Source: Chrysomallon squamiferum
Lineage: Eukaryota; Animalia; Mollusca
DNA: 64,000 nucleotides
NCBI GenBank assembly: GCA_012295275.1
Contig: CM022676.1
Span: forward strand, 4,278,001 to 4,342,000
Direction of reading: 5' to 3'
The translations under genes were made by a program, and so were the position numbers. The notes under the pieces were generated by a model. That model made no database searches, was not told the DNA's origin, and saw only the letters and a list, made by a program, of their open reading frames with translations. Positions 11,033 through 64,000 of the stretch are shown piece by piece. Every line of letters begins with the position of its first letter. Positions within the stretch are counted from its first letter, which is position 1.

Positions 11033-11364
11033 GCACGTACATACATACATACATACACACATACATACATACGCACATATATACAGACACACAAACACCT
11101 CACGTATATACATATATGCATACACTCAGACATGTCTATGTACCTACCTACATTCAAAGATTGTTACATGCATTTTAATACACTCAATACATACATGAAC
11201 GCGCTAACAATGTTTATATAAGCCAAAAGATAATTTCATTCCATGTTTCAGATAATCAGACTGCAGCAGCAACAGAACATCAAGATACAGGGAATTCATA
11301 TTCTTCTCTTGAGGAAAGAGGATATGAGGTCCCATATGACGTCATTAAGTTTGAGAACAAATGA
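5969..11364 (+). pseudogene. Unit A: IgSF receptor pseudogene, L-V-I2-I2-I3-TM-cytoplasmic tail with terminal ITAM-like exon
   Basis: Leader 5969-6019 (7-nt deletion gives TAA, donor lost); V 6859-7169 (311 nt, -1 frameshift); I2 7480-7740 intact; second I2 8423-8682 (260 nt, -1 in an A run); I3 8827-9087; TM 9491-9607; tail exons 10469-10496, 10932-10978 (acceptor AG>AT) and 11252-11364 (DNQTAAATEHQDTGNSYSSLEERGYEVPYDVIKFENK*). Confidence 0.85.
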
Positions 11365-14734: not shown

Positions 14735-16975
14735 ATGAGTTGTAAGTTATTCTGTGTGTTCGTGTTACTGCGATGTGTAATTTACGTACAAGTTATGTAT
14801 TTTATATTGCGTCGAAGTTATGTTTCCTTGAATAATGTTAAAAATATATGCGTAATTGTGTGATTTGCATTTTTGAAACATATCTATATTAAAACACGTG
14901 ACAATAACATAACATAACATAACAACAATATATAATTACAGAGTGTAAAGTAACGTAACGTAATGTAACATAATTATGGAAGAAAGTATAAATAAATAAT
15001 AAATAAATAAATTAATAAAAATAACACAAAAACTTAACAAGAATGTAATTATAAAAAATGAATTTAATTTTATTTGAATATTTTTATTTTTTATTTTAAA
15101 TTTTAGGTCTGCATTACAATTTAACAACATCAGACAGATATGCAATTTGTGGATCACCTTTTACTTTTACCTGCCAGAGAGATTTTCATTTTTTTGTAAT
15201 AAGTTGGTTTGAGAATACCAGAATGTACAAGATGAGTGATCGAGATGGACACGGTCAGTGTCATTTTCACAGTGAACATCCAGAAGAATACACTTTTAAC
15301 TGTTCAAATGGTATTAACACTGTGACAATAAAATCAGTGAAACTCAGTCAACATGGAACAGTGTGGAGATGAGGTGATTTTAAACCAGGCAGCAATGAAA
15401 TAAAACTGGAAGTAAGAGGTAAAATTAACTTATTTATTATTAATATTATTACTGTATATATTATACGTTTAACAAAAGTAATGATATAAAACTGGAAGTG
15501 AGAGGTAAAATTAAGTTTCATTATTATCATCCTACGAAATGTGTACTGTTAATTATGACAAAACAATAAACTAAATAGATCAGCAAACATATTAGCAAAA
15601 TAAATATAAATAAATAAATAAATAACAAAACTAAATAAATAGTACTGACGTTAGTAATAATTATAATATCATCAGCAACAACTGAAACACTGCACTATCA
15701 CCATCACTCCGACGAGAACATCCATAACTAACAATACGAGCAACCCACAATTTCTACTGTCAGAAAGATTAAACAAAACTATGAAGACAGTGATGATGAT
15801 GCTGCCGATAATGATGATCATGTTGATAATGTGCTGTTTTCAGGTTGTCCTGGAACATCACTCAAGCTGAATACTTCATCTGTTGTGACTGCTGTGGAAG
15901 TAAGAAACTAATTAGAGTAAAAATAAAAATGATAAAGTGAACAAATAACTTAGTGTTTATTAGAGGTGTGTGTTAAAATATCAGACAATCAATTATAAAT
16001 GTTTACGTGCGAATATCCAGTCTGTAGAATGGCTTAGATAGACGGACTCCGTCAACGTATTAGATCACGTACAGGATGTACGATACGGGTCACGTACGTA
16101 ACTCATCTTCAGTTTAGCTTCGACGTATACCCCAAGGCTCATTCGCGGTTTTTTTTGTACTTTTTTTTTAATTCATTTTATTTTGAATTTAATTTTGAAT
16201 ACAGATCATAAATAGTTATATAATAACTATTCAGAGAGATTCAGAGAGAGAGAGAGAGAGATATAGATGCATGCATCAGAAATGATAGAGAAATATTAAA
16301 ATCTAAATTATTTTTGGAAGTATCTTTCTTTTATTTTTTTGACAAACATTTTTTGACCCTTAACTTACTTTGAGTAGCATATAATAACGTAATCTCACGT
16401 TTTTATTTTCATTACTTAATTTTCAGGCCCTGTAGAAGATAACGATCAGTTTGGAAAAGGATTTGGCAGCGGTTTTGGGACGTTTTTCGTTGTGTCTGTT
16501 ATCATAGTCATCATCGTCTTCCTCTACTTCCGATATAAAAGAAGTATTTATTGATTTGTTTGTTTATTTATTTGTTTGTTTGTTTCCTTCTTTCCTTCCT
16601 TCTTTCTTTCTTTCTTTCTTTCTTTCTTCTTAATTGATTCTTTTTATTTTACTTTCTAATATAATATACACAGACACATATTAGCACGATTATTGTTTTC
16701 TTCGCAGATCACAATTTTTAAATATAAGAAAACATAATTGAATTCTATGTTTCAGGTAATCAGACTGCAGCAGCAGCAGAACATCAAGATACAGAGAATT
16801 CATATTCTTCTCTAGACGAAAGACGATATGAGTTCATATATGACGTCTTAATACCTGATGGTAAGAGAACTGATATTAATTAACGATAAAGAAGAAAACC
16901 AGTATTGTTTGTTAACCATACGCTTATTCAGACACTTCCACGAAAACAGAAACAAGAGAGATAGATAGATAGATG

Positions 16976-23506: not shown

Positions 23507-25960
23507 CCCACGAATCACAAAACCCAAATAAATAATTTGTTATTAGTCAGGCCCTGTAGAAGACAGCAGTCAGTTTGGAAAAGAATTTGGCAGCGGTTTT
23601 GGAACTTTGTTTTTTGTGTCTGTTATCATTGTCATTGTCGTTGTTCTCCATGTCCGAAACAATTGAAGTATTTCTTTATTTGTTTGTTTGTTTGATTCAT
23701 TCTTTCTTTCTCTATTTCTTTTTATTTTGTTTTCTATTCTTTATTTATTTATTCATTCATTCAATTGATAGTTCGTTCATTTATTCATACCTTCATACTA
23801 GTGTATGTTTGTTCTTTGTATGTTTATTTATTTTATTATGTATTTTAATTACACTTACGCATGGATAAAAGGGGAGATAAATCAAGACTACTTTACACAA
23901 CTACATTACACAGAGTAATCAAACCTGTTTTCTTGACTACCTGTCTAGTTCAGCCACCTGATAAATACTAATTCCATTTATGTTTCATATACACCTTAAC
24001 TAAATAGTTATTTTATGTTAAAATTGTGTTTGTGTGTTTATATATGTCTACATACACACACGTCAGCACGATTATTGTTTTCTCCACACCTCACAAGTTT
24101 TATAGAAACGAAAATTTCGTTGTATGTTTCAGATAATCAGACTGCGCCAGCGGCTGTACAACAACATACAGAGATGTGATAAAGTTTGAAAATACATGAA
24201 ACTGTTGTTCGTGAATAACAAAGAAGAAAACAAGTTTTATTTGTTAATCATGTACTTCTTAAAACTGTTTTATGAATACTAACAAGATATTAATTTGTTA
24301 AAAGTTTTTTTTACTAATATACAAGGCCTTCAGTTTCCACAATGACACAAAATTTGAATACTGTAAATAGCTACCTGTTATAAATATTTTAATCAGTTGC
24401 TAATCCCGAATTTTTAATCATTAATTACCATTGTCTGAGATGTGGCTCTAACTATGTGAAAACTTCGGGAGATTTCTGATTTAAAATTAAACTATTTACC
24501 CACGTATACCTTAATTAAAGGAAACATTTGATCTCAGTAACGCTGGTCTCATTCGCACATGTTTCATCTTTTAATGTTTTATATTTGCTCAGATGTAAGA
24601 TCCTTCACGTCATGAAAGTCTCTATTTTCTTGTATCACAGTAGCATGAGAAATGAAATTCCTGGCTGAAAATGTCAGATTTTTTTTATACTAACAAGAGT
24701 TTTCTTTCCACGAGTTCGTAAACTTTATCTGTCAAAGCTGTTCTCTTTTTTGGTGATACCTGTGAGTTTTTCATATTTTTATTCTCTATTTACATTGAGT
24801 AAAGCATAATTCTATGTGATGATATTGTAAAAGTTAGACGAGGGTTCGGGCGTACGAATCGATTTTGTTTGGTTTTGTTTGGTTTTTTATGTTGAAATAA
24901 ACGACTTGGATTGGATTTAAAATGCTTTTGTTTTTTTAAACAATGTTTCTGTATGTGCATGTTTCCTGTTATATGTCTTTCTCTGTAGTGTTATATTTTA
25001 TTGGGAATTGTTGCTTATGTAAAAAAAGACGGAAATGATAGAAAATGGGTTGAACGAACTATGGGCAAGCTGTTAGAGCCGGAAAAAGGACAAGGGACAT
25101 AATGAAGGGAACTGCTGTAAGTACTAAACTATATCTAACCAAGCTATTCACTTTTTTGGTGATACTTGTGAGTTTTTCATATTTTTATTCTCTATTTACA
25201 TTGAGTGAAGCATAATTCTATATGAGGATTTTGTAAAAGTTTGACGAGGGTTCGAGCGTACCAATCGATTTTGTTTGATTTTTGTTGTTTGTTTTGTTTT
25301 TTATATTGAAATAAATGCATTGGATTGGATTTAAAAAGCTTTTGTTTTTTCAAACAATGTTTCTGTGTGCGCATATTTCCTTTTAAAGAGGTCAAGGGAC
25401 GTAATGAAGGGAACTGATGTAACTACTAAACTAGTGTGTACTATTTTTCTGCTCATTATGTTATTTTCTTTATCATATTACCAGATTTGTTTATGTGTTC
25501 GCGATAACAAAGATTTTTCGTTGACGTAATAAATACATTTTCCAGTTCTCTGCTGTATTTTATTCTTTCCCTTCGTGCACAATAAGTAAACTAATGTTTT
25601 TCTTTGTCTTTCAAACGTGTTCGTCTGTTTGTGTGACTATGTTTATAACAAGCTTTCTCCATCGATTTTTGAAATTCAGCCGTTTTGATTTTACACACCT
25701 CCCTTTTCTTTTCTGTTATTCTCTATTTATCTGTTACTCTGTCTGATTACTCTTTCTTTCTTTACTTCACTGTATCCACACATCCATCCATCTGTCTACC
25801 CAATCACTGTCTCTGAATATATAATTACATATGAAAGAATGTATGTCTAACGAAACGACACAACATGGGTTAAACGTATTGTGGGGAAGCAGTTACAAGA
25901 GGAAAACAGACAAGGGACATAATGAAGGGAAGTTATGTAACTACCAGACGTATGTGTGTT

Positions 25961-27968: not shown

Positions 27969-28608
27969 GTATTTCTTTATTTGTTTGTTTATTTACTGAT
28001 TTATTTATTTATTTTTGTTGGGTTTGTTTGTTTCTTATTTATTTATTTATTTCTTTGATTGTTTGCTAGTTTCTTGCTTTCTTTTTTACTTCTTTGTTTA
28101 CTTATTTGTATATTTCTTTTTATTTTACTTTGTATTATTTATTTATTCATTCATTTATCCATTTGTTTGTTGCTTCGTTTATTCATTCATTTATTTATTC
28201 ATTCATTCATGCTGTTACTTGTTTATTGTTTCTATCTTTATTTGTTTCTTTGTCCGTTTGTTTATTTTGTTATACATTTTATTTAGTTTTACCTATAAGT
28301 ATAAGGGAGATAAATCTAGTCTAATGTAGCCAATTACCCTGAACAGAGTAACGAAACCTGTGTTCGCGACTAACTGGGCATTTCAGATACCTGATAAAGA
28401 AAAATGATTTGTAAGCAGAACAAGGTTTAATCATGGATTTATTTCAGACAGACAAAATAGTAAAAATATTTCACGATCGGTACTATACCCAGTAATGAGG
28501 TCTGCAATTACGTAGCATGATTTGAAGAGAAGGGTATACTGAATACATAATAATAGCTAGTACTAGTATCACTGCCACCAGTATCAACACCACCACAACT
28601 ATTAGTAT

Positions 28609-28668
<60 letters not shown>

Positions 28669-29180
28669 AACTATGTTTATAACGGTGATTATTATTATTA
28701 TTTTAATTATTATTATTATTTTACTATTATTAATGCTATTCTTCTTCTTCTCATTATTATTATCATTGTTGTCATTATGAAACATGTACGAAAGAGACCA
28801 GTGTTGGTGAGATTGATCAAATGTTTCTTTTAATTAATGTAAACGTGTGTAATATATTTAAATTTTTAGTCAGAAATCTCCCGAAGTTTTCACATAGTTA
28901 GAGTCAAATCCCAGACAATGGTAATGAATGATTAAAAATTCGCGATTAGCAACTCATTAAAATATTTAAAACATTTCTCACAAGTAGCTATTTACACAGT
29001 TCAAATCTGGTGTCACTGTAGAAACTGAAGTCTTTGTAACTTAAAAAAAAAAAAACTTTAAACAAATTAATATTCTGTAGGTTTTCATCAAACAGTTTTA
29101 AGAAGTGTATGATTAACAAATAGAACTTGTTTTCTTCTTTATCATTCACGAACAACAGTTTCATTTAGTTCCAAACTTTA

Positions 29181-29227
29181 TCACATCTCTGTATGTTGTT
29201 GTACAGTCGCTGGCACAGTCTGATTAT
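29181..29227 (-). CDS. Unit E terminal exon DNQTVPATVQQHTEM* (tyrosine core deleted)
   Basis: catgtttcag acceptor; homologous to 17307, 24133 and 62462. Confidence 0.6.
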
Positions 29228-29700
29228 CTGAAACATGCAATGAAATTTTCGTTTCTATAAAACTTGTGAGGTGTGGAGAAAACAATAATCGTGCTAACGT
29301 GTGTGTATGTAGATATAGATATAAACACATTAACACTATTTTAACATAAAATAACTATTTAGTTAAGGTGCATATGAAACATAAATGGAATTACTATTTA
29401 GAATGTTTCTATTTTATTCTCATCAAATCCAAAATCGAAAAATTCGAAAATTTCGAAACATTTCGGATAAGGGTTTGTCAAGTTATATATATATATATAC
29501 GATTTATAACCGGAAAAGAAACAGCTATATCTATCTATCTATCTCTCTATCTATATATGTATGACAAATTCCCATTCTTTGTACATCATAACAGTAAGAA
29601 AACCTTGGTGGTTTCTTTTGTGAAAGTGTCTGAATAAGTGTATGATTAACAAACAATACTTATTTTGTTCTTTCTCATTTATTAATATCAGTTCACTTAC

Positions 29701-29805
29701 CATCGGGTATTAAGACGTCATATGTGAACTCCTATCCTCTTTCTTCTAGAGAATAATATGAATTCCATGATTCTTGAAGTTCTGCTGCTGCTGCAACCTG
29801 ATTAT
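29701..29805 (-). CDS. Unit E ITAM-like exon 4 (in-frame stop after the first YxxL)
   Basis: 105 nt, phase 1-1; DNQVAAAAELQESWNSYYSLEERG* with TAT>TAG at 29732-29734. Confidence 0.7.
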
Positions 29806-29904
29806 CTGAAACATGGAATTAAATTATGTTTCGTTTTATTTAAAAATTTTAAAGTGCGGAGAAAACAATAATCGTGCTAACGTGTGTGTGTGTGTGTGTG
29901 TGTG

Positions 29905-29940
<36 letters not shown>

Positions 29941-30649
29941 CATACACACATACATATATCCAAACACATAGGTACATACATACAGATATAGATACATAAA
30001 TATACATCGATGTACGACTGTGGATGTGACTGTTTATATTATATTTTACAGCTATTTCAAAATCATTTACAAAGTGTCTCTCTTCGAAATCTGAAATCAA
30101 GTTGACATTCCATACACAGAGACTTCGAGACAAACACGTTTATAAATCCACTTAAAACTATTTCGAACATATTTAGAATCTATTCTTTCTCAAAATCTGT
30201 AAAACATCTAATACTTCGGAAAAAAACACACGAAGTAAACATACATTCTTTCCAATATATATATATATATATTTCCGTACCTTCTAGTGAATTAATTCAC
30301 TAACACAAGTTTTTACACCTATATTAATCAGATTAAAATATCGTTGTTTATCTGTAAGCTATGTATATCTGTTTATGTAAATCTGTAATGTACGTATGTC
30401 TGTGTGTAACTATGTACGTATTAATTAATATATAATTGTAAGGATGGGTCATTTGTCATTTAAAACAATTTTAACGTAAAATAACTATCTACTTAAGCTG
30501 TATATGAAATATAAATGTAATTCGTATTTAGAATGTTTCTATTTTAAGGCTATCTCAACAAATCGAAAATCCAAAAATTCAGAAAATTCAGAAACCCTTC
30601 GGATAAGGAATTGTCACCGGAAAAGAAATACCCATATCTATCTATTTAT

Positions 30650-30724
<75 letters not shown>

Positions 30725-30816
30725 GTTTCTTGTTAGTGAAAGCATCTGAATAAACATATGATTAACAATGAATACTCGTTTTCTTCTTTATCATTTATTA
30801 ATATCAGTTCACTTAC

Positions 30817-30921
30817 CTTCAGGTATTAACACGTCATATGCAAACTCATATCCTCTTTCCTCTAGAGAAGAATATGGATTCTCTGAATCTTGAAGTTCTG
30901 TTGCTGGTGTAGTCTGATTAT
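30817..30921 (-). CDS. Unit E ITAM-like exon 3
   Basis: 105 nt, ttcag acceptor and g|gtaagt donor; DNQTTPATELQDSENPYSSLEERGYEFAYDVLIPE. Confidence 0.8.
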
Positions 30922-31267
30922 CTGAAACATGGAATTAAATTATGTTTTGTTTTATTTAAACATTGTAATGTATATATACACACACAAACACGTAGATACA
31001 GACAGAGATACACACATATACATCGATGTAAGAGTCTGCCCGTGGCTGTGTATATTATATTTTCCAGCTATTTCAAAATCATTTACAAAGTATCCCTCTT
31101 AAAAATCTAGAATAATTTTAGCATTTCATACAAAGACACTTCTAGAGAAAGATATTTCTAAATCTATATAAAACTATGTCGAACATCTTTGGAATCTATT
31201 TTTTCTCAAAATCTGTAAAACATCTAATATTTCGGAACAACAAAAGGAAAATAATATACATTCTTTG

Positions 31268-31339
<72 letters not shown>

Positions 31340-31844
31340 ATATATATGTAATATTGCTGTACCTTCTAGTGAATTAATTCGTAAGCACAAGTTTTTACAC
31401 CTATATTAACCAAACTAAAATATCATTGTTTTCATGTAAGCTATGTCTGTGTGTCCATGCAAATATACAATGTAAGTCTGTGTGTGTGTACCGATCTACG
31501 TATTAATTAATATGTAATTGTATGGATGGATGCTTTGTCATTTAAAACCATTTTAACATCAAATAAATATTTATTTAAGCTATATATGAAATATAAATGG
31601 AATTAGTATTTAGAATATTTCTATTTTAAGCCAATCTCATCAAATCGAAAATCCAAAAATTCCGAAAATTCCGAATCATTTCGGATAAAGGATTGTCAAC
31701 TTATGTATGTACGATTAATTACCGGAAAAGAAATATCTATCTATCTATCTTGTTTCTTTTTTCGTGAAAGTTGCTGAATAAACGAATGATTAACAAATAA
31801 TATTCGTTTTCTTCTTCATCATTTATTAATATCAGTTCACTTAC

Positions 31845-31949
31845 CATCAGGTATTAAGACGTCATATGCGAACTCATATCCTCTTTCCTCTACAGAAGAA
31901 TATGAATTCCCTGTGTCTTGAAGTTCTGCTGCTGCTGCAATCTGATTTT
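31845..31949 (-). CDS. Unit E ITAM-like exon 2
   Basis: 105 nt, phase 1-1; ENQIAAAAELQDTGNSYSSVEERGYEFAYDVLIPD. Confidence 0.8.
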
Positions 31950-32439
31950 CTGAAACATGGAATTAAATTATGTTTTGTTTTATTTAAAAATTGTGATGTG
32001 CTGAGAACACAATAATCGTGCTAACGGATATATATATATATGTACACACACAAATACGTAGATACATACATAGATACACAAAACAACATCGATGTAAGAG
32101 TCTGCCTGTGACTGTGTATACTATATTTTACAGATATTTCAAAATAATTTACAAAGTGTCTGTTAAAAATCTAGAACAATTTTACAATTTCATACAAAGA
32201 CACTTCTAAACAAATATATTTATAAATCTATATAAAACTATTTCGAACATATTTAGAATCTATTCTTTCTCAAAATCTATCTATCTATATATATGTATGT
32301 ATGTATGTATGTATGAATGTATGTATGTATGCATGTATGTTTATGAGGATTTCTTTTCGTGAAATTGTCCGAATAAGCGTATGGTTAACAAGCTATACCC
32401 GTTTTCTTCTTTAGCATTAATTAATATCAGTTCACTTAC

Positions 32440-32530
32440 CACCAGGTAATAAGACGTCATATGGGTCGTCATTTCCTCTTTCCTGTAGAGAAAATATGAA
32501 TTCTCTATATTTTGATGCACATTGCTGATT
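32440..32530 (-). CDS. Unit E ITAM-like exon 1 (91 nt, apparent 1-nt deletion)
   Basis: ISNVHQNIENSY..SLQERGNDDPYDVLLPG when one base is restored (tattttctcta versus tattcttctcta in paralogs); good acceptor and gtaagt donor. Confidence 0.7.
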
Positions 32531-32825
32531 CTGAAATTGCAAACGTAAATAAAATATATTACATATACTTCGATGCACTAATCCGAGAATGAGAAAAAGA
32601 ATGGAAACACATACATACATACATTAACACATATTTACATACATATATACATATATAAAATCATACACACATATATACGTACATATATACATACATACAT
32701 ACACATATATATAAACTCACAAAAGAACATGGAGATATACATAAGCACATATAGACAGATGGACAAAAAAACATGAACTATATTTTACAGAATGAAAATA
32801 GTAAAAAAAGTACAAATTAATTTAC

Positions 32826-33566: not shown

Positions 33567-33683
33567 TTCTTTTGTTTCGGACGTAGAGAACAACGACAAT
33601 GACAATGATAACAGACAGAACAAGAAAACTTCCAAAACCGCTGCCAAATTCTTTTCCAAACTGACTGCTGTCTTCTACAGGGC
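33567..33683 (-). CDS. Unit E transmembrane exon
   Basis: 117 nt, phase 1-1; CPVEDSSQFGKEFGSGFGSFLVLSVIIVIVVVLYVRNKR, a hydrophobic stretch followed by basic stop-transfer residues. Confidence 0.85.
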
Positions 33684-33844: not shown

Positions 33845-34392
33845 ATCCGCCTACTCACACCATTCCACTTTCTCCTCCAACTAGTAGATGCTGAACAACG
33901 TTAACAGCAACAAATGTAATTCCATGACGAATCTAAACAAGAGCCAGCCCATCACTCAACTAGAGAAGATGTTTGATTCATCTGCTGCACTGGATATGAC
34001 GTCTACGCCGATGAAGACGAGCCATTCGCTGACGGGCTGACTACAGGATGCCGACGTCGGGAAGTTTGGTCTACCAAACGATTACTGACGTTCTGATCAG
34101 AAACATTGTTGCCTTTACAATCTCTGAGTCTCATTGTTGCCTTTACAAGTCGCGAAGACGTCGTGTCGGAACAAAACCCTGTTGCAACGTCGCCATCATC
34201 AGCAGTCGGTCTTTTCGAACTGTGGTCTTCCAGAATGGGACAGATTAGTCGTCCTGAATCTCTTTCAGATTCTACAGATAACAATTTGCCTTACATTTAG
34301 ACGGAGAGCCACATCTTTGAGTGTGTCCATCTTGTAGCCAGCCAGTGACCCTTCCCCTGTCTTGCAAAACTCAGTTGTCGTCAAAAAAAGCA
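33845..34392 (-). mobile_element. Decayed Tc1-like (Tc1/mariner) transposase, N-terminal two thirds
   Basis: Across frameshifts: DRGRVTGWLQDGHT (HTH start), HSGRP (GRPR-like), NVSDQNVSNRL (TVRNRL-like), DES (first catalytic D context), SDG, and VGGESGMV*VG resembling GGGSVMVWG. More GC-rich than its flanks. No TIRs recognised. Confidence 0.75.
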
Positions 34393-35293
34393 TCTTCAAC
34401 TTAAAAGTGATGATGAAACGAAAATGTTCATCGCTTTTATTGCTAAAATTGGCATTGAATTATGCTAAGCACGTGCAAATGGTGCTTGACGTGTCAGAGT
34501 GGGTGCTTCGAGGCACGTTGTCTGTTAAGTCTGACTGTATGTTTTAGCTTCAATTCCATGAAAAGGAAATCTGGGTTAATTTAAAAAATGTATAAAGATA
34601 AGGGCAATGATTGCATGCCCATATGTCTTTAGTCCAGATGATGACACAAACATTAATATTCTAACCCTATCTGCACCATCAAAAAAAAACAAAAAAAAAC
34701 AAACAAAAAAAAAAAAAAGATACTTGGAAAAAAATTTTTAAGAATGCCTTCGACCTTGACTTCTTTTGAGCAGTTTATTATTTATACTTCTTCAGTAGAT
34801 TAGTAATTTGTATTTGCTATTATTAATATATCTTCAGAGAGTAGTTAACTATTTATTTGCTATAGTTAAGTTATCTTCAGTTAAAACGGTAACTTTTATT
34901 ACTATTAATTATGATGTATGTAACAAACATGAACATATGCATACTACATAAAACATACTACATAAGCACACACACATACGCACGTAATATACACACAGAT
35001 GGGCACATATATACATTATATATACATACTTATATAAAAGCACACTTACATAGATATATCTTTAAATATATTCATACTTGCATACATGCAGAGAGATTAC
35101 ATTACATATACCTATCTATTTCTCTATCTATCTATCTATCTATACATATATACATATATATATATAGACAGATGAATATACACCTACATATACATAAGTA
35201 TAATGACACAAACACACGTACATATACATCTATACACATACATTTATACATACACACATACCACCGCACATATTAAGAATGAAGATAACGTAC

Positions 35294-35572
35294 AAAGATG
35301 AAACGATTCCAAAGATTTTCTCACTGCTGTTTTCACCTTGTTTTCCGCCTCACAATAAAATCCTTCCCAGTCTGAACAAGATGTCGCTATACAACTGTAG
35401 TCCAATGTCGTGGCGTTCTGAACTTGGTGCAGCAGTTGTCTCCCTTTCAGTATTTTAATTGCGGACTTCGGATTACTGTCAACGTTACATACAAATGTTG
35501 CATTTAGTTTATTCTCCCTTGCATAGTTACTCAAATGCTCAGTGATCACTTTTGTCTTAATGGAAGGTTGGT
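35294..35572 (-). CDS. Unit E membrane-proximal Ig exon (I4)
   Basis: 279 nt, phase 1-1; NATFVCNVDSNPKSAI...SCSDWEGFYCEAENKV. Confidence 0.85.
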
Positions 35573-35803: not shown

Positions 35804-36064
35804 ATTTAACGTTAATAATAGTTTTGGTCTGTGATGTTTGCTTCGTATCCGGATTAGAAGCAATGCATGTGTAGACGCCATCTTGAAGTCTCGTGATATT
35901 AGTCAGTGCCAGTAGTCCGTTGTTGCTGACAATCTGACTGGTCAGTTCCCATCTGTAAAGGCATTTGATGGTGCAATCGGCTTTGCATGATAATGTGACT
36001 TCACTTCCTTCCTCTACAGTGATTTCAGACGAAGAATTGACTCGAAGAGAAATACCGGGACCGT
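35804..36064 (-). CDS. Unit E Ig exon I3
   Basis: 261 nt; GPGISLRVN...VTLSCKADCTIKCLYRW...DGVYTCIASN; cacag acceptor and gtgagt donor. Confidence 0.9.
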
Positions 36065-36530: not shown

Positions 36531-36791
36531 AATGTACAGTCAAACGAAGTGTTTTTTTAGCAGTTTGTTTCGTATCCGGATTTTCAGCCGTACACACATA
36601 GACACCTGATTGTGATATATGAACATTAGCCAATGATAGAATGCTCGTTTTACTTATGACGTCATCTGCGACCTTCCATTCATAATTACACGTCACGAAA
36701 CAGGTCGCGGAACACAACACTGTGACGTCACTTCCTTCCTCAGCAGTCACAACAGATGAAGTATTCAGTTTGAGTGATGATCCAGGACCAT
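36531..36791 (-). CDS. Unit E Ig exon I2
   Basis: 261 nt; DGPGSSLKLN...CSATCFVTCNYEW...QSGVYVCTAEN; gtaagt donor. Confidence 0.9.
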
Positions 36792-37185: not shown

Positions 37186-37497
37186 CTCTCACTTCCAGTT
37201 TTATTTCATTGCTTCGTAGTCTGTAATCACCACATCTCCACACTGTTCCATGTTGACTGAGTTTCACTGATTTTATTGTCACAGTGTTAATACCATTTGA
37301 ACAGTTAAAAGTGTATTCTTCTGGATGTTCTCTATGAAAATGACACTGACCGTGTCTATCTAGATCACCCATCCTGTATATTATGTTATTCTCAAACCAA
37401 ATTATTCCAGGAAAATGAAAATCTCTCTGGCAGGTAAAATTAAAAGGTGATCCACAAATTGCATATCTGTTTGATGTTGTTAAATTGTAATACAGAC
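37186..37497 (-). CDS. Unit E V-like Ig exon
   Basis: 312 nt, open; LYYNLTTSNRYAICGSPFNFTCQRDFHFPGIIWFEN...HGTVWRCGDYRLRSNEIKLEVR. Confidence 0.9.
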
Positions 37498-38170: not shown

Positions 38171-38228
38171 CTTGTACGTAAATTACACATCCCAGTAAAA
38201 CGAACACACAGAATATCTTACAACTCAT
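38171..38228 (-). CDS. Unit E leader exon MSCKIFCVFVLLGCVIYVQG
   Basis: 58 nt, intact ATG and gtatgt donor, phase matches the V exon. Confidence 0.85.
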
Positions 38229-38545: not shown

Positions 38546-39139
38546 GTGTGTATGAGTATGTACGTGCGTTTAGGTAAGTGTGCGTGTGCATTTTAAATAA
38601 TTAAAAATCTTTCCTTCAGAGATAAAGGGCAGTCATTTTGAATTGTCGCATGAATTATACAACATGGATGTTTGCCAACTTTTGTTTCTTATTTTATGAC
38701 ATGACTTGGTCAGTTTTATTTTGGTATGTTGTAACTCTACCACTCTGTTTAAAACCAGTCATGGATGAAAAAAAAACGCGGAAAAAATGTATTTCTATTT
38801 TGTTCGGTTTATACTGGAATATGTGTGTGTATGTGTGTATTATAGTTGTTGTTCTTTTGTTATTATTATTATACTTCCTTTATTACATATGTTTATATTG
38901 TATTACATTATGTTACATTGCGTTACGTTATTCTGTATAATGTACTGTCATATTACGATACATTATGTTATCCTATCTTATGTTATGTTATTGTTTCATA
39001 TTTTGATAAATATATTTCAAGAGTTCATGTTACTTAGTTATTACCATTAGTCATCCACAAATGACGTCGACTCCACATTTGGTAAATGAAACGAGACTAA
39101 CTCAGATAGAGATAAATAATTTGAATATAAAATACATAC

Positions 39140-39188
39140 CTTGTACGTACAATACACACCCCAGTAACACGAATAACTTACAACTCAT
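39140..39188 (-). CDS. Additional upstream leader exon (49 nt) MSCKLFVLLGCVLYVQG
   Basis: Same sequence as 1373-1421; intact phase-1 donor. Confidence 0.6.
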
Positions 39189-39933
39189 TTCCAGTATTTT
39201 AGTTTTCACTGTTGTTAATGAAAATATATACTGTCTTAGCTAAGTTTTTCTGTTTTAAATTCTTCCTTGTTTTCTTTCCTGTTGATGCGTCACCACATTT
39301 ACTTTCTGTTTCGTAAGTAAAACACCCTTTATATTCTTTGTAAAATAGACTGTAATGGACTGTAATCTGTAATAGACTGGATTCAATCGAAGGACTTCTG
39401 CAGTCTACGAAAAGACAGTCTACACGAAACTGATTATACTTTGAGATTTTATATTATTATTATTTAACGTTAGTGGAATTAGCATACATTTATGTAATAA
39501 TGCTATGAATTATTGACAATGTTTTAGTTCAGGAATGGGCAAGCTTTTTTCAAGAAGCTGGCCACATGAGAAATGACTCATCCTCAGTTGGGCTGCTGTT
39601 ACTAATTTAGGCGATTTTGTGTTTTTACGTAGAGTTAATTTAAGACATTTTTCATTTTCATTTACTTCAGGAACTGTTATAAAACTGTTTTTTTATGACT
39701 AGTTTAGACGAATTCGTACGAACGAGTGCGCATATTGGCGTATGTGTTTATGATACAAGGAAAAGTAGAAAGATACGGTTTATTTTGTGCGATGTTCTGA
39801 CTCTACACTCTATTTAAAGCCAGCCATGGATGAAAGGAAACGCACAAAACATATAACCTAAAACACAAATACTCTTTCTGTCAAGTTATTGAGTAGCATA
39901 CCCTTTCTATTTTGTTCGGTTCATACTGGAATA

Positions 39934-39990
<57 letters not shown>

Positions 39991-40304
39991 TTGAGTGTGT
40001 GTGAGTGTGTTTTATTTTTGTTGTTTTGTTATTATTATTGTTATTATTGCTTCCTTACATATTTTAATATTGTATTACATTATGTTACACATCGTTACGT
40101 TGTGTGGTGTACTGTTATGTTATGATACATTTTATTATCCTGTGTTATCTTATGTTATGTTATTGTTTGATAAATATATTTCAAGAGTTCATGCTACCAG
40201 TTATTACCTTAGTAATGGTGTCGACTCCACCCAGATTTCACAGTTTGTAAATGAAACGAGATTAACTCAGATAGAGATAAATAATGTGGATATAGAATAC
40301 ATAC

Positions 40305-40362
40305 CTTTTACGTACAATGCAGATCCCAGTAACACGAACACACAGAATAACGTAAAACTCAT
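40305..40362 (-). CDS. Additional upstream leader exon (58 nt) MSFTLFCVFVLLGSALYVKG
   Basis: Diverged but open and hydrophobic; aaag|gtatgt donor. Confidence 0.6.
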
Positions 40363-41002
40363 TTCCAGTATTTTAGTTTTCACTGTCGTTAATAAAAATA
40401 TAGTTTTAGTTTTAGTATCTTTTCCTCGATAATTTCTTGTTTTCACAGCAGTTAATAAAACATCGTTTTAATTTTATTATCTATTATTTACTACTTTCTT
40501 GTGTTCACTGCTATGAATAAAAAATGTTTTTCTTCTTTGCCAAGTTGTAAGATTTACTCTGACTACCTTCTTGTATGGATACCTTTACAATTGTTATTTA
40601 ATGAAGTATCACGATCAAAAGTCAGTGCATTTCAAGTCAATTCACCTGGTAGGCCCAGTGATGAAATGTTTTATCACACACAGATACATACACACATAAA
40701 CAGACATAGATACATATACATACAGACCGATATATAGATTATATGCTTAACAAAACGCCCAAGAAAGCCTAGTTCTGTTTGTACAGATATAATAACCAAA
40801 CTAGCAACACCCCCTATAAATATCACTGGATCCGTCTTTCGGACGACTTTGTCAAGTGTAATTCAACACGATAGGAAAGCAGCTGCACAAGAAAGATTAT
40901 TTACACCGATAAATCTTTTTCTCCTACGATCGCATTTGCACCCGTGACATAACAAAGTGAAAGAGTGTACAAACTGTCGCGTATTCTTCTGTGTTTCGAC
41001 AG

Positions 41003-43754
<2,752 letters not shown>

Positions 43755-46484
43755 TAAACAAGGGAAGAAGTTCTGTTTGTCAATCATTCACTTTTTAAGG
43801 CACTTTCATGAAAACTTGAAGAATATTAATTTGTTAAATATTTCTATTAAAATAGAGAGACTTCAGTTTCTACAGTGACACCAGATTTGAACTGTGTAAA
43901 TAGCTACCTGTGAGAAAAGTTATAAATATTTTAATGAGTTGCTTATCGCAAATTTTTAATCATTCATTACCATTGTGTGAATTGTGACTGTAACTATGAG
44001 AAAACTTCTGGAGATTTCTGACGTAAAATTTAAATTTTACCCACGTATACATTAATTAAAAGAAACATTTGATCAATCTCGGTAACACTGGTATCATTCG
44101 CACATGTTTCATCTTTTAATTTTTTATATTTCCTCAGATGTAAGATCCTTCACGTCATGAAAGTCTCTGTTTTCTTGTATAACAGTAACATGAGAAATGA
44201 AATTCCTGGCTGACAATGGCAGAATAAATCTATATTTACATGTTTTTTTTAATACTATCAAGTGTTTCCTTTCCACGGCTTCGTAAACTTTATCTGTCAA
44301 AGCTGTTCCTTTTTTGGTAATACTTGCGCGTTTTTCATATTTTTATTCTCTATTTACATTGAGTGAAACATAATTCTATGTGATGATTTTGTAAAAGTTT
44401 GAGAGGTTTCGGGAGTAGGAATCGAATTTTTTTCTTGTTTTTGTTTTTTATGTTGAAATAAACGGCTTGGATTGGATTTAAAACCCTTTTCTTTTTTTAA
44501 ACAATGTTTCTGTGTGTGCATGTTTCCTTTTAATTGTCTTTGTCTCTACTGTTCGATTTTATTGGGAATTGTTGCTTATGTAAGAAAGTCCGAAATGAGA
44601 GAAAATGGGTTAAAGGAATTGTGAGCAAGCATTTTGAACGGGAAACAGCACAAGGGACGGAATGAAATGAACCATGTAAGAACTAAACCAGTGTGTACTA
44701 TTCCTCTGCTCATTATCTTATCTTTCTTTATCATATTAGCAGGTTTGTATCTATGTTCGTGATCACAAAGATTTGTTTCGTTGTCATGAAAAATATATTT
44801 TCCAGTTCTCTGCTATATTTTATTCTTTCCCTTAGTACACAATAAGTAAACTAATGTTTCTCTTTGTCTTTCAAATGTGTTCGTCTGTTTGTGTGTCTTT
44901 GTTCATAACACGATTTCTCCATCGATTTTTGTATATCCACCATTCTGATTTTACACACCTCTCTTTTCTTTTCTATTATTCTCAATTTATCTGTTACTCT
45001 GTCTGATTGTTCTTTCTTTTCTTCACTGTATCCACACTTCCATCCATCTGTCTACCCAATCACTGTCACTGAATATATAACTACGTATGTAACAACGTAT
45101 GTCTAACGAAATGACAGGACATGGGTTAAACGAATTGTGGGGAAGCAGTTAGAACAGGAAAACAGACAAGGGACATAATAAAGGGAAGTTACGTAACAAC
45201 TAAACGTATGAGTGTGTGTGAGTGTATGTATATATGTATATATAGATATACGTAGACACATACATAGGTATAGTATACATAGACACTTATATATATATAC
45301 ACACACACACACAGATACATACATACGTACATAATATATCACATATGACAGTGCACTACTCAGCGTAACGTAACGCAATGTAACATAATGTAACATGTTA
45401 TAAAAATATCCAATAAAGCAAGCATAATAATAATAGCAAAAACAACAACAATATTAACATACAGAAACACACAGACACACACACACACACACACACAATC
45501 ACACACACATACACATATTTCAGTATAAACCTAACACAATAGAAAGAGTATGTTACACTATGGCGTGACAAAATAAAGAATATCATCTGTTTTGAGATTA
45601 ATTTGCGGTCGTCTTTTTCCATCCATGACTGGTTTTGAACAGAGTGGTAGAGTCACAACATACCAGAGTAAAACTGTCAAAGTCATGTCGTGACGTAAGA
45701 AACAAAACTTAGCAAACATCCATGTTGTATATGTCACGCGACAATGGCCGCCCTTTATCTCTACAGCAAAGATTTCTAATTATCAGAAATGCACACGCAC
45801 ACTTACTTACACGCACCCACACAGACACATATACAATCATACATTGATACCCGAATATTGACATACACACATATATCACCTATCTGCCTACGCTCATAAA
45901 TATTATATACATGCATATATGAATATACATACATACATATATATGTGTGTGTGTATATGTAAATATTTGTGTATGTATCCATATATATGTAAAGACACAT
46001 ATATACACATATGCAAATATGGAAATGCTTACACCTGTAAGGTAAAATACCTTCAAATATACCTATAAACGTACATAAATACACGTGCACATCAATAATA
46101 AAATAAAAAAATAATAATAAAAAAATAAAAAATTAATAAAAGAAAATTAAAAGAAAATAAAATAAAAACAAAACGAAGAAGAAGAAAAAACATTCTAAGC
46201 TGAATTAACCATTCAAAATTCAACGCTGTGTGACATATTGCACTGTGCATTTTTTCTGATTCAGTCGAGTGGATTTAGTTTATTAATAAATATGCAGAGC
46301 CAATGAGACTTTTGGTGACGTTTTGTTTGACACAGGAAGTAAACGTCATAAGTTACCAGAATAAAGTACAAGAAGAAGGCGTCGAAAACTGTTTTTACAT
46401 TGAGAGCAGTAAAATCGAGAAAGCAGTCAAGAAAAGACAGCAACTATATTTTTATTAACGGCAGTAAAAACTAAAACACTGGAA

Positions 46485-59218: not shown

Positions 59219-59530
59219 AACGTCCGAATCTTCGAGGGTCTGCCCCTTACGCTTTCAGCGGTCTTTCATTTACGTTGACATGTCAGATTTTCCAAACTTC
59301 ACATAACGTCAGGTGGTTTGAGAATGACGTCAGCTATGACGTGTATAGTAATGGGCGCGCACACTGTGATGTTTTGTCACGTATTAGTGGAAATTACACT
59401 TTCAAATGTTTCCGTAAGAAGTTTCTAGTTACTATAAAATCTGTGAACAGAAATCAAGAAGGAAATATTTGGCGATGTGAAAATATCGATCATCAATATT
59501 CCAGTAACACAATTGTGTTGAAAGTTAGAG
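59219..59530 (+). CDS. Divergent second V-like Ig exon (V2), seen only in unit G
   Basis: 312 nt, phase 1-1; YAFSGLSFTLTCQIFQTSHNVRWFEN...HC...YTFKC...VTIKSVNRNQEGNIWRCEN...SNTIVLKVR keeps the four-Cys V pattern. Confidence 0.85.
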
Positions 59531-61702: not shown

Positions 61703-64000
61703 ATGAATCACAAAACCCAAATAAATAATTTGTCATTAGTCGTCAGAATTTCAGCATATTAGCTTATCTTTATTTGCACAAACGTTTTTGACCCTTAATT
61801 TATTTTGAGTAGTATATAATATCTTAATCTCACGTTTTTATTTTCATTAATGAATTTTCTGGCCCTGTAGAAGACAGCAGTCTGTTTGTAAAAATATTTG
61901 GCAGCGGTTTTGGAACTTTGCTTGTTCTGTCTGTTATCATTGTCATTGTCGTTGTTCTCCATGTCCGAAACAATTGAAGTATTTCTTTATTTGTTTGTTT
62001 GATTCCTTCTTTCTTTCTCTATTTCTTTTTATTTTATTTTCTATTCTTTATTTATTTATTCATTCATTCAGTTGATCGTTCGTTTATTTATTCATACCTT
62101 CATACTAGTGTATGTTTGTTCTTTGTATGTTTATTTATTTTATTATGTATTTTAATTACACTTACGCACGGATAAAAGTGGAGATAAATCAAGACTACCT
62201 TACAAAACTACATTACACAGAGTGATCAAACCTGTTTTCTTGACTACCTGTCTAGTTCAGCCACCTGATAAATACTAATTCCATTTATTTTTCTCATACA
62301 GCTTTACTAAATAGTTATTTTATGTTAAAATTGTGTTTGTGTGTTTATATATCTATCTATTTATATATATATATATGTACATACACACACGTCAGCACGA
62401 TTATTGTTTTCTCCACACCTCACAAGTTTTATACAAATGAAAATTTCATTCCATGTTTCAGATAATCCGACTGCGCCAGCGGCTGCACCACAACATACAG
62501 ACTTGTGATAAAGTTTGAAAATAAATGAAATTGTTGTTCGTGAATGACAAAGAAGAAAACAAGTTTTATTTGTTAATCATGTACTTCTTAAAACTGTTTT
62601 ATGAATACTAACAGGATATTAATTTGTTAAAAGTTTTTTTTACTAATATACAAGGCCTTCAGTTTCCTCAATGACACAAAATTTGAATACTGTAAATAGC
62701 TACCTGTTATAAATATTTTAATCAGTTGCTAATCCCGAATTTTTAATCATTCATTACCATTGTCTGAGATGTGACTCTAACTATGTGAAAACTTCGTGGG
62801 ATTTATGACTTAAAATCAATCTATTTACACACGTATACATTAACAAAAAAGAAACATTTGATCAATCTTGGTAACACTGGTGTCATTCATACATCTTTCC
62901 GCTTTTAATTTTTTATATTTCCTCAGATGTAAGATTCTTGACGTCATGAAAGTCTTTATTTTCTTGTATAACAGTAATATGAAAAATGAAATTCCTGGGC
63001 GACAATGGCAGAATAAATCTATATTTACAGGTTGTTTTTATACTAACAAGAGTGTTCTTTCCACGGTTTCGTAAACTTTATCTGTCAAAGCTGTTCTCTT
63101 TTTTTGTGATACTTGTGAGTTTTTCATATTTTTATTCTCTATTTACTTTGAGTGAAGCATAATTCTACATGATGATTTTGTAAAATTTGGACGAGGGTTT
63201 GAGCGTGCCAATCGATTTTGTTTGATTTTTGTTGTTTGTTTGTTTTTTATATTGAAATATACGGCTTAGATTGGATTTAAAATGCTTTTGTTTTTTCAAA
63301 CAATGTTTCAGTATGTGCATGTTTCCTGTTAAGTGTCTTTCTCTATACTGTTAGATTTTTGGGGGAATTGTTGCTTATGTAAAAAAAAAACGAAATGATA
63401 GAAAATCGGTTAAAAGAACTATGGTTAAGCAGTTAGAACTGGAAAAAGGACAAGGGACATAATGAAGGGAACTGATTTAAGTACTAAACTATATCTAACC
63501 AAGCTATTCCCTTTTTGGTGATACTTGTGAGTTTTTCATATTTTTATTCTCCATTTACATTGAGTGAAGCATAATTCTATATGAGGATTTTGTAAACGTT
63601 TGACGAAGGTTCGAGCGTACCAATCGATTTTGTTTGATTTTTGTTGTTTGTTTTGTTTTTTATATTGAATTAAACGGCTTGGATTAGATTTAAAAAGCTT
63701 TTGTTTTTTCAAACAATGTTTCTGTGTGTGCATATTTCCTTTTAAAGAGGACAAGGGACGTAATGAAGTGAACTGATGTAACTACTAAACTAGTGTGTAC
63801 TATTTTTCTGCTCATTATGTTATTTTCTTTATCATATTACCAGATTTGTTTATGTGTTCGCGATAACAAAGATTTTTCGTTGACATAATAAATACATTTT
63901 CCTGTTCTCTGCTGTATTTTATTGTTTCCCTTCGTGCACAATAAGCAAACTAATGTTTTTCTTTGTCTTTCAAATGTGTTCGTCTCTTTGTGTGTCTTTG

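Follow-up and report, generated by a model that had tools for sequence, protein, structure and literature searches.

In unit E, a receptor gene of the mollusc Chrysomallon squamiferum, the reading that we favour with moderate confidence is that the tail exon was duplicated as a unit of ~1 kb comprising the exon and its intron, and that two of the resulting cassettes (c2 and c3) are spliced in series and so supply a tail with two ITAM-like motifs, for which recruitment of a kinase of the Syk/Shark type is predicted. The window analyzed here, a stretch of 64,000 nt of contig CM022676.1, is animal DNA of 31% G+C rich in microsatellites. Exon mapping by BLAST combined with splice-site reading revealed a tandem cluster of genes for transmembrane proteins with Ig domains. 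The plus strand carries units A, B, C, D, F, and G/H, while unit E lies in the opposite orientation on the minus strand. Phase 1 is shared by every coding exon of this cluster.

Across the window, E is the only unit in which all ectodomain and transmembrane (TM) exons are open and bounded by canonical splice sites. Along the minus strand, it starts with a leader exon that runs from an ATG through a signal peptide to a phase-1 end (38171..38228), followed by an N-terminal Ig V-like exon of 312 nt (37186..37497), two Ig exons of 261 nt (Ig2, 36531..36791, Ig_2 E-value 1.4e-8; Ig3, 35804..36064, Ig_3 E-value 1.1e-9), a membrane-proximal Ig exon of 279 nt (Ig4, 35294..35572, for which the Ig_3 E-value of 0.0016 is below cut-off), a TM exon of 117 nt in phase 1-1 (33567..33683), and the tail exons. 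The TM exon ends in a weak GTATTT donor, which is common to six of the seven TM exons in the window. No additional exon was found between Ig4 and TM, and none of the E exons scanned matched an Fn3 family. While the V exon had no match in Pfam, the model of its domain (pLDDT 86) matched antibody and TCR V domains in Foldseek, a protein atlas grouped the domain with mollusc clusters, and cysteines are kept at the B- and F-strand positions along with two more. From leader to c4, nine exons with canonical splice sites throughout form a single open frame of 523 codons. As predicted from this chain, the product is a 523-residue single-pass immunoglobulin receptor of a likely gastropod family, and E is likely an immune-type surface receptor.

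The initial annotation of this region had described four successive tail exons in E, three of them symmetric 105-nt exons, and this description holds. The three exons, c2 (31845..31949), c3 (30817..30921), and c4 (29701..29805), all on the minus strand, start 1028 nt (c2–c3) and 1116 nt (c3–c4) apart, and share the same 25-nt acceptor (ending in TTTCAG), a GTAAGT donor, and phase 1-1, the latter also common to the TM exon (33683-33567) as previously proposed. Each of the three had been thought to encode Yxx[L/V]-x8-YDVL, which is correct for the intact c2 (YSSV-x8-YDVL) and c3 (E-x-x-YSSL-x8-YDVL, the best ITAM match) but not for c4, where the internal stop noted earlier, a TAG at codon 24, lies between the tyrosines and leaves only YYSL, 31 nt ahead of the last junction. 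The first cassette, c1 (32440..32577, minus strand), is degenerate: besides the 1-nt deletion already reported, its 5′ end is replaced. The nearest acceptor yields an out-of-frame exon of 91 nt (32530-32440), while an upstream AG at 32577 yields an open 138-nt phase 1-1 exon with only the YDVL half-site left. A fifth copy of the same exon is the terminal exon of E (29180..29227, minus strand), from which a 46-nt deletion has removed the motif. The array of ~1 kb exon-plus-intron tandem repeats spans 29701..32577 on the minus strand, and since the introns between copies are homologous to each other (72–92% in BLAST blocks), the duplicated unit is the exon together with an intron of ~1 kb.

Overall, 11 homologs of the tail exon were detected in the window, including five internal ones (B and c1–c4), two motif-bearing terminal exons (A and F), and four short terminal exons (B, C, E, and the last unit) that represent the same exon minus the 46 nt carrying the motif. 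The distribution of the motif is as first annotated, i.e., B has one internal cassette (16756..16860, plus strand, 105 nt, YSSL-x8-YDVL), A and F each have one motif in the terminal exon (11252..11361 and 43624..43751, both plus strand, YSSL-x8-YDVI), and C and the last unit have none. In a tree, the internal cassettes form one clade with support of 100/99, apart from the terminal types, while their inner order, including the position of B, is unresolved. Joined in silico from leader to c4, the exons of E encode a 98-residue tail with two ITAM matches. Two motifs are also retained when c4 is skipped, and none when c1 is entered by its nearest acceptor or when the TM exon is joined to the terminal exon. 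The range for E is therefore zero to two complete motifs, and not four.

We evaluated splicing of the cassettes by aligning four runs, three of them RNA runs from a single study, to 661 nt around c2 at 80% likeness. The RNA runs placed 9, 12, and 4 contigs, respectively, all <95% alike to E, which are thus derived from paralogs or alleles of E. In X3 record 21 (500 nt, depth 3.4), four family exons follow each other in exact register and intron-free (105 + 87 + 105 + at least 95 nt), the 87-nt exon corresponding to an 18-nt in-frame shortening. In X3 record 20, a cassette continues into the start of another family exon where the intron would be, and in X2 record 16, the TG of a cassette end precedes an exon start and then a terminal-type end, both from hand reading of 30-letter loose ends. 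Taken together, these in-register joins indicate that cassettes of the family are spliced in tandem, head to tail, as the earlier proposal requires; none of these contigs was assigned to E, and low-depth contigs running through repeats may be mis-joined. Two pieces of X3 record 21 have 1 and 0 differing letters, but this near-identity is not proof of an origin in E, because their 5′ 28 nt are unlike c2 and one contig includes a doubtful 67-nt exact repeat. Intron-homologous sequence is included in X3 records 18, 19, and 22, while the X4 contigs contributed nothing on the cassette exon. Neither a TM-to-cassette join nor exon skipping was seen in the RNA contigs around c2. Among the differences listed, none falls on either tyrosine of the motif, whereas RNA contigs do differ at the middle tyrosine. 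On the same 661 nt, 247 contigs of run X1 were placed, and up to 32 of them had one variant in common; this points to many genomic copies but is not a copy number. For E itself, we consider it quite probable that c2 and c3 are spliced in tandem.

Next, relatives were sought using the V domain alone (HMMER profile), yielding 68 proteins, with names established for 18 of them and 2 more. The best matches were Gigantopelta aegis proteins labelled 'CEACAM-like', then proteins of Haliotis, Dreissena, Mya, Lottia, and other molluscs, with E-values to Gigantopelta-type proteins of 1.7e-64 and 3.5e-39. Word-based searches missed this family, with 0 of 12 candidates belonging to it when the V domain was used, and 28 generic matches at 26–39% identity for the constant Ig profile. 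The 'CEACAM1/5-like' proteins of G. aegis, a vent snail (XP_041372832.1, XP_041346676.1, XP_041379697.1, XP_041373955.1), combine a V domain, a GPGS-type Ig domain, a membrane-proximal Ig domain, and a TM helix, as does E. The homologous domains occur in the same order in both, with identities of 40–52% for V, 44–49% for Ig2, 34–44% for Ig3, 35% for Ig4, and 32–39% for TM. The Gigantopelta tails also carry a YSSL-x8/9-Y[DE]xL pair like that of the E cassettes. This pair is present once in each of the six full in-frame tails, and its half-sites are far better kept than the spacers: compared to c3, P0116 matches at 6/8 half-site but 2/8 spacer residues, and P0099 at 8/8 half-site residues. In the predicted isoform P0115, the pair is lost by a frame change. 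Tail-only BLAST to Gigantopelta gave E-values of 0.12–0.31, which are not significant alone. Unlike E, the Gigantopelta proteins combine a single ITAM with a third tyrosine motif, and none of the six tails repeats the 35-residue cassette.

The tyrosine pair had been expected to be conserved in paralogs elsewhere, and it is kept in distant relatives. A crude filter retained 15 of the 68 proteins as having a TM helix and a tail of 30–250 aa. Strict ITAMs were found in 3 of these 15 tails (two from related G. aegis genes and one from Mya arenaria) versus 0.07 expected from shuffles, and loose ITAMs in 6 versus 0.24, the 7–9-residue spacing of the pair being kept in two mollusc classes. Judging from these tails, the motif is constrained across species. 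Within the window, the cassettes show no sign of purifying selection. Cassette exons are 83–91% identical versus 84–88% for the adjoining downstream intron, and pN/pS is 1.41 for the four cassettes and 1.78 when A and F are added, versus 0.41–0.69 for constant Ig and TM exons. Tyrosine codons are invariant (0 of 6 columns variable versus 29 of 93), which is not significant (P 0.10). The counts behind these window statistics are small and non-independent, and are consistent with either neutral drift or a fixed core with diversification around it. The V exons reached a pN/pS of 1.30 (five copies, namely E 37186-37497, B, C, G, and H, one of them with a stop), versus the same 0.41–0.69, a pattern that a diversifying domain for ligand binding would produce.

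These patterns bear on a plausible alternative, to which we nonetheless give less than even weight, i.e., that the ancestral ITAM is real and a single copy suffices for its function, the additional copies in E being tolerated debris of a microsatellite-rich and unstable cluster, with no selected effect of their number. This alternative does not conflict with the first half of our favoured reading, and the two differ on whether the number matters. It would account for the damage to two of the four E cassettes, for the lack of a purifying signal, and for the unrepeated motif in all six motif-bearing Gigantopelta tails. Each unit other than E also has a frameshift, a stop, a lost splice site, or a missing part: the V and one Ig exon are frameshifted in A, the V exon has a stop and Ig2 is truncated in B, Ig3 exons are broken in C and G, C and H have a stop at the TM exon end, F has lost its TM donor and is without V, and D has a disrupted Ig4 and no tail exon. 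Since broken symmetric exons could be skipped, these damaged units are not proven pseudogenes. Ongoing rearrangement is further indicated by orphan leader exons and by the inversion of E, which appears to have cut two genes since D is without a tail exon and F without 5′ exons. However, E has more copies than any other unit and is also the unit in which every other exon is intact, and the RNA contig with four exons in frame includes an in-frame deletion of 18 nt. A stop near the last junction also escapes decay under the 50-nt rule, and the stop of c4 is placed where it would do so.

The initial annotation had proposed that ITAM number could be tuned by exon copy number and by exon skipping. 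Copy number does vary among paralogs, with 0, 1, or 2 intact motifs in the window and at least four exons in one RNA contig, but tuning as such is unsupported so far, as E has at most two complete ITAMs, its cassettes show no sign of purifying selection, and no skipping isoform was seen. We regard selection on cassette copy number only as a tentative possibility, and regulated skipping of cassettes as unlikely. More doubtful still would be the broadest version, in which a large mollusc family uses the one-exon ITAM as a dial, with paralogs, haplotypes, and isoforms bearing zero to at least four ITAMs behind a diversifying V domain. If true, activation thresholds would be set for microbes, possibly including symbionts, in the way vertebrates use ITAM multiplicity.

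Whether the cassettes signal as ITAMs can be judged from several features. The pattern Yxx[L/I]-x6-8-Yxx[L/I] matches c3, B, A, and F but not c1 or c4, while c2 is a near match with Val at the first +3 position and no acid at −3. The consensus as given in passages of PMC6994640 includes an acidic residue three ahead of the first tyrosine, and this residue is Glu in c3 and B, Gly in c2, A, and F, and Trp in c4. Among 100,000 shuffled peptides, the ITAM pattern arose in 0.85% for c2 and 0.69% for c3, the copies being one duplicated sequence and thus non-independent. Based on exon phase, the cassettes would follow the TM helix in frame, and annotated Gigantopelta proteins have the motif at the same tail position. 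The tails of c2, c3, A, and F had no Pfam match to the ITAM profile at E-values up to 1, a search of low sensitivity for such short queries, and a PDB sequence search with the tails returned no match. Overall, we consider it fairly likely that the cassettes function as ITAMs, and by analogy the motif is probably one that would recruit a Syk/Shark-type kinase.

It is improbable, in our assessment, that the tyrosines are instead mainly inhibitory or adaptor sites (for SHP-2/SHIP or single-SH2 proteins) or YxxL endocytic signals, rather than a Syk-recruiting ITAM. This would be consistent with the second tyrosine of A (11252-11361) and F (43624-43751), where V-x-Y-x-x-I also fits the ITIM consensus given in sections of PMC9546547 (Val at −2), with the third tyrosine motif of the Gigantopelta tails, and with passages on Botryllus co-receptors in which one substitution toggles between ITIM and hemITAM at the very position that is V in the second half-site of A and F. 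In the internal cassettes (B and c2–c4), however, Phe occupies this −2 position, the E cassettes have Asn ahead of the first tyrosine, and neither half corresponds to the ITIM consensus; the conserved spacing of the pair in two mollusc classes also argues against this reading. Even less probable is that E is silent or decaying, or that its damage and duplication are partly assembly artefacts, such that the array never becomes protein: no RNA match was assigned to E (a run search that is uninformative either way), most neighbouring units are broken, and single-base indels are a frequent assembly error in multi-copy regions, but the uninterrupted 523-codon chain with canonical splice sites speaks against this, and the copies, because they differ by 9–17% in exons and introns, are not a collapsed or doubled read.

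Under our favoured reading of c2 and c3 as serial ITAM-like cassettes, the tail exon would have been tandemly duplicated with its ~1 kb intron, and the fast-evolving V domain would bind a ligand and cause the receptor to cluster. A Src-family kinase would then phosphorylate both tyrosines, in line with established ITAM biology, and a Syk/Shark tandem-SH2 kinase would dock, as suggested by ITAM biology, by the oyster CgIgR-Syk pair (from parts of PMC6994640), and by a SYK-like gene annotated in G. aegis (from parts of the PMC7895826 supplement). The outcome may be a haemocyte- or epithelium-type response, e.g., phagocytosis, and by analogy E is most likely an activating receptor. Unequal crossing-over would gain or lose ITAMs with the frame kept, since the whole motif lies in one symmetric exon and its number can change without a frameshift, and ITAM copy number would thus turn over in a birth-and-death cluster.

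Several known systems resemble E in part. As described in sections of PMC6994640, the oyster receptor CgIgR has an ITAM in its tail, binds bacteria, and co-precipitates CgSyk; it is a mollusc Ig receptor with a tail ITAM, like E, but with a single one. Passages on Hydractinia Alr (PMC9546547) describe, as in the E cluster, clustered V-set receptors with pseudogenes and one exon per domain, along with tail ITAMs or ITIMs and alternative tails produced by splicing. Unlike E, Alr proteins have an Fn3-like extracellular spacer and some overlapping ITAMs, and tandem whole-ITAM exons are not described in these passages. The mammalian CEACAM cluster, including the ITAM-bearing CEACAM3 and dog CEACAM28, is like this one a fast-expanding cluster of receptors with V and constant Ig domains, whose members gain or lose ITAMs through splice-site loss and stops (parts of PMC2110893). 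The same parts of PMC2110893 describe the mammalian ITAM as dispersed over several small exons with a phase-0 intron interrupting it, because of which it is not stackable as one exon, whereas in E it lies whole in one phase 1-1 exon. Fish proteins named CEACAM gave matches of 31–34%, no better than hemicentin-like matches. The N domain of vertebrate CEACAMs is not known to have the Ig disulfide, unlike the V domain of E which keeps the Ig cysteines, and E is in all likelihood no vertebrate CEACAM. The tail of CD3 zeta bears three ITAMs, and this chain is an adaptor of fixed motif number that has no ligand-binding ectodomain. Draper, with one ITAM and EGF repeats, has Drosophila isoforms in which the Shark-binding ITAM is kept, interrupted, or lost by splicing (parts of PMC13148388). 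Neither CD3 zeta nor Draper is known to vary paralog ITAM number by exon copy, unlike the E family.

While ITAM Ig receptors are already known in oyster, Hydractinia, and vertebrates, those compared here have a motif that is single or split between exons, and what sets E apart is a whole ITAM in one frame-symmetric exon. We found no description of such a stackable exon in the open-access literature, most subscription papers being outside that search. A single invertebrate family with 0, 1, 2, and ~4 motifs offers a natural series for testing ITAM multiplicity against signalling outside vertebrate lymphocytes. In the parts of PMC7895826 available, a 'CEACAM-like'-labelled orthogroup has 130 members in G. 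aegis, and the relatives identified here are linked to it by name. Membership of this like-labelled orthogroup peaks in three chemosymbiotic molluscs (130, 101, and 103 genes versus 0–59 in the 15 others, with 0 in Octopus and Euprymna), which makes the family a candidate for a role in recognizing microbes; ITAMs are unmentioned in the portions of the PMC7895826 supplements seen.

Other features of the window concern its rearrangement history. Around the inversion, unit D stops after the TM intron at a microsatellite (~28600-28780), and F is without 5′ exons (~40400-41000). More leader-like copies lie upstream of the E leader, near 39140-39188 and 40296-40394, and leader exons at 46453, 52892, 39188, and 40394 have no V exon after them. 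Inverted copies at 1072-2537 and 38845-40299 are 95.6% identical and include a leader exon (1452), which suggests that a putative sister of E, of recent origin and on the minus strand, lies past the left edge of the window. Between 44 and 57 kb, upstream blocks are repeated. The TM exons of C (23551-23667) and H (61862-61978) have the same stop immediately past the helix, and both units are predicted to encode tailless receptors, possibly decoys or products of decay. The intron between Ig4 and TM in E includes a more G+C-rich stretch (~33940-34800) that the introns of paralogs do not have; Pfam gave no convincing match for two short open frames within it, and the stretch is perhaps a mobile-element remnant. 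A 49-nt intron piece at 31566-31614 recurs in many unrelated contigs of all three RNA runs and is probably a dispersed repeat. Finally, unit H has its V exon placed immediately upstream of the TM exon, and unit G has a second, divergent V exon (59219-59530, 37% to the V of E), which mirrors the V-Ig-V-Ig layout of Gigantopelta proteins.
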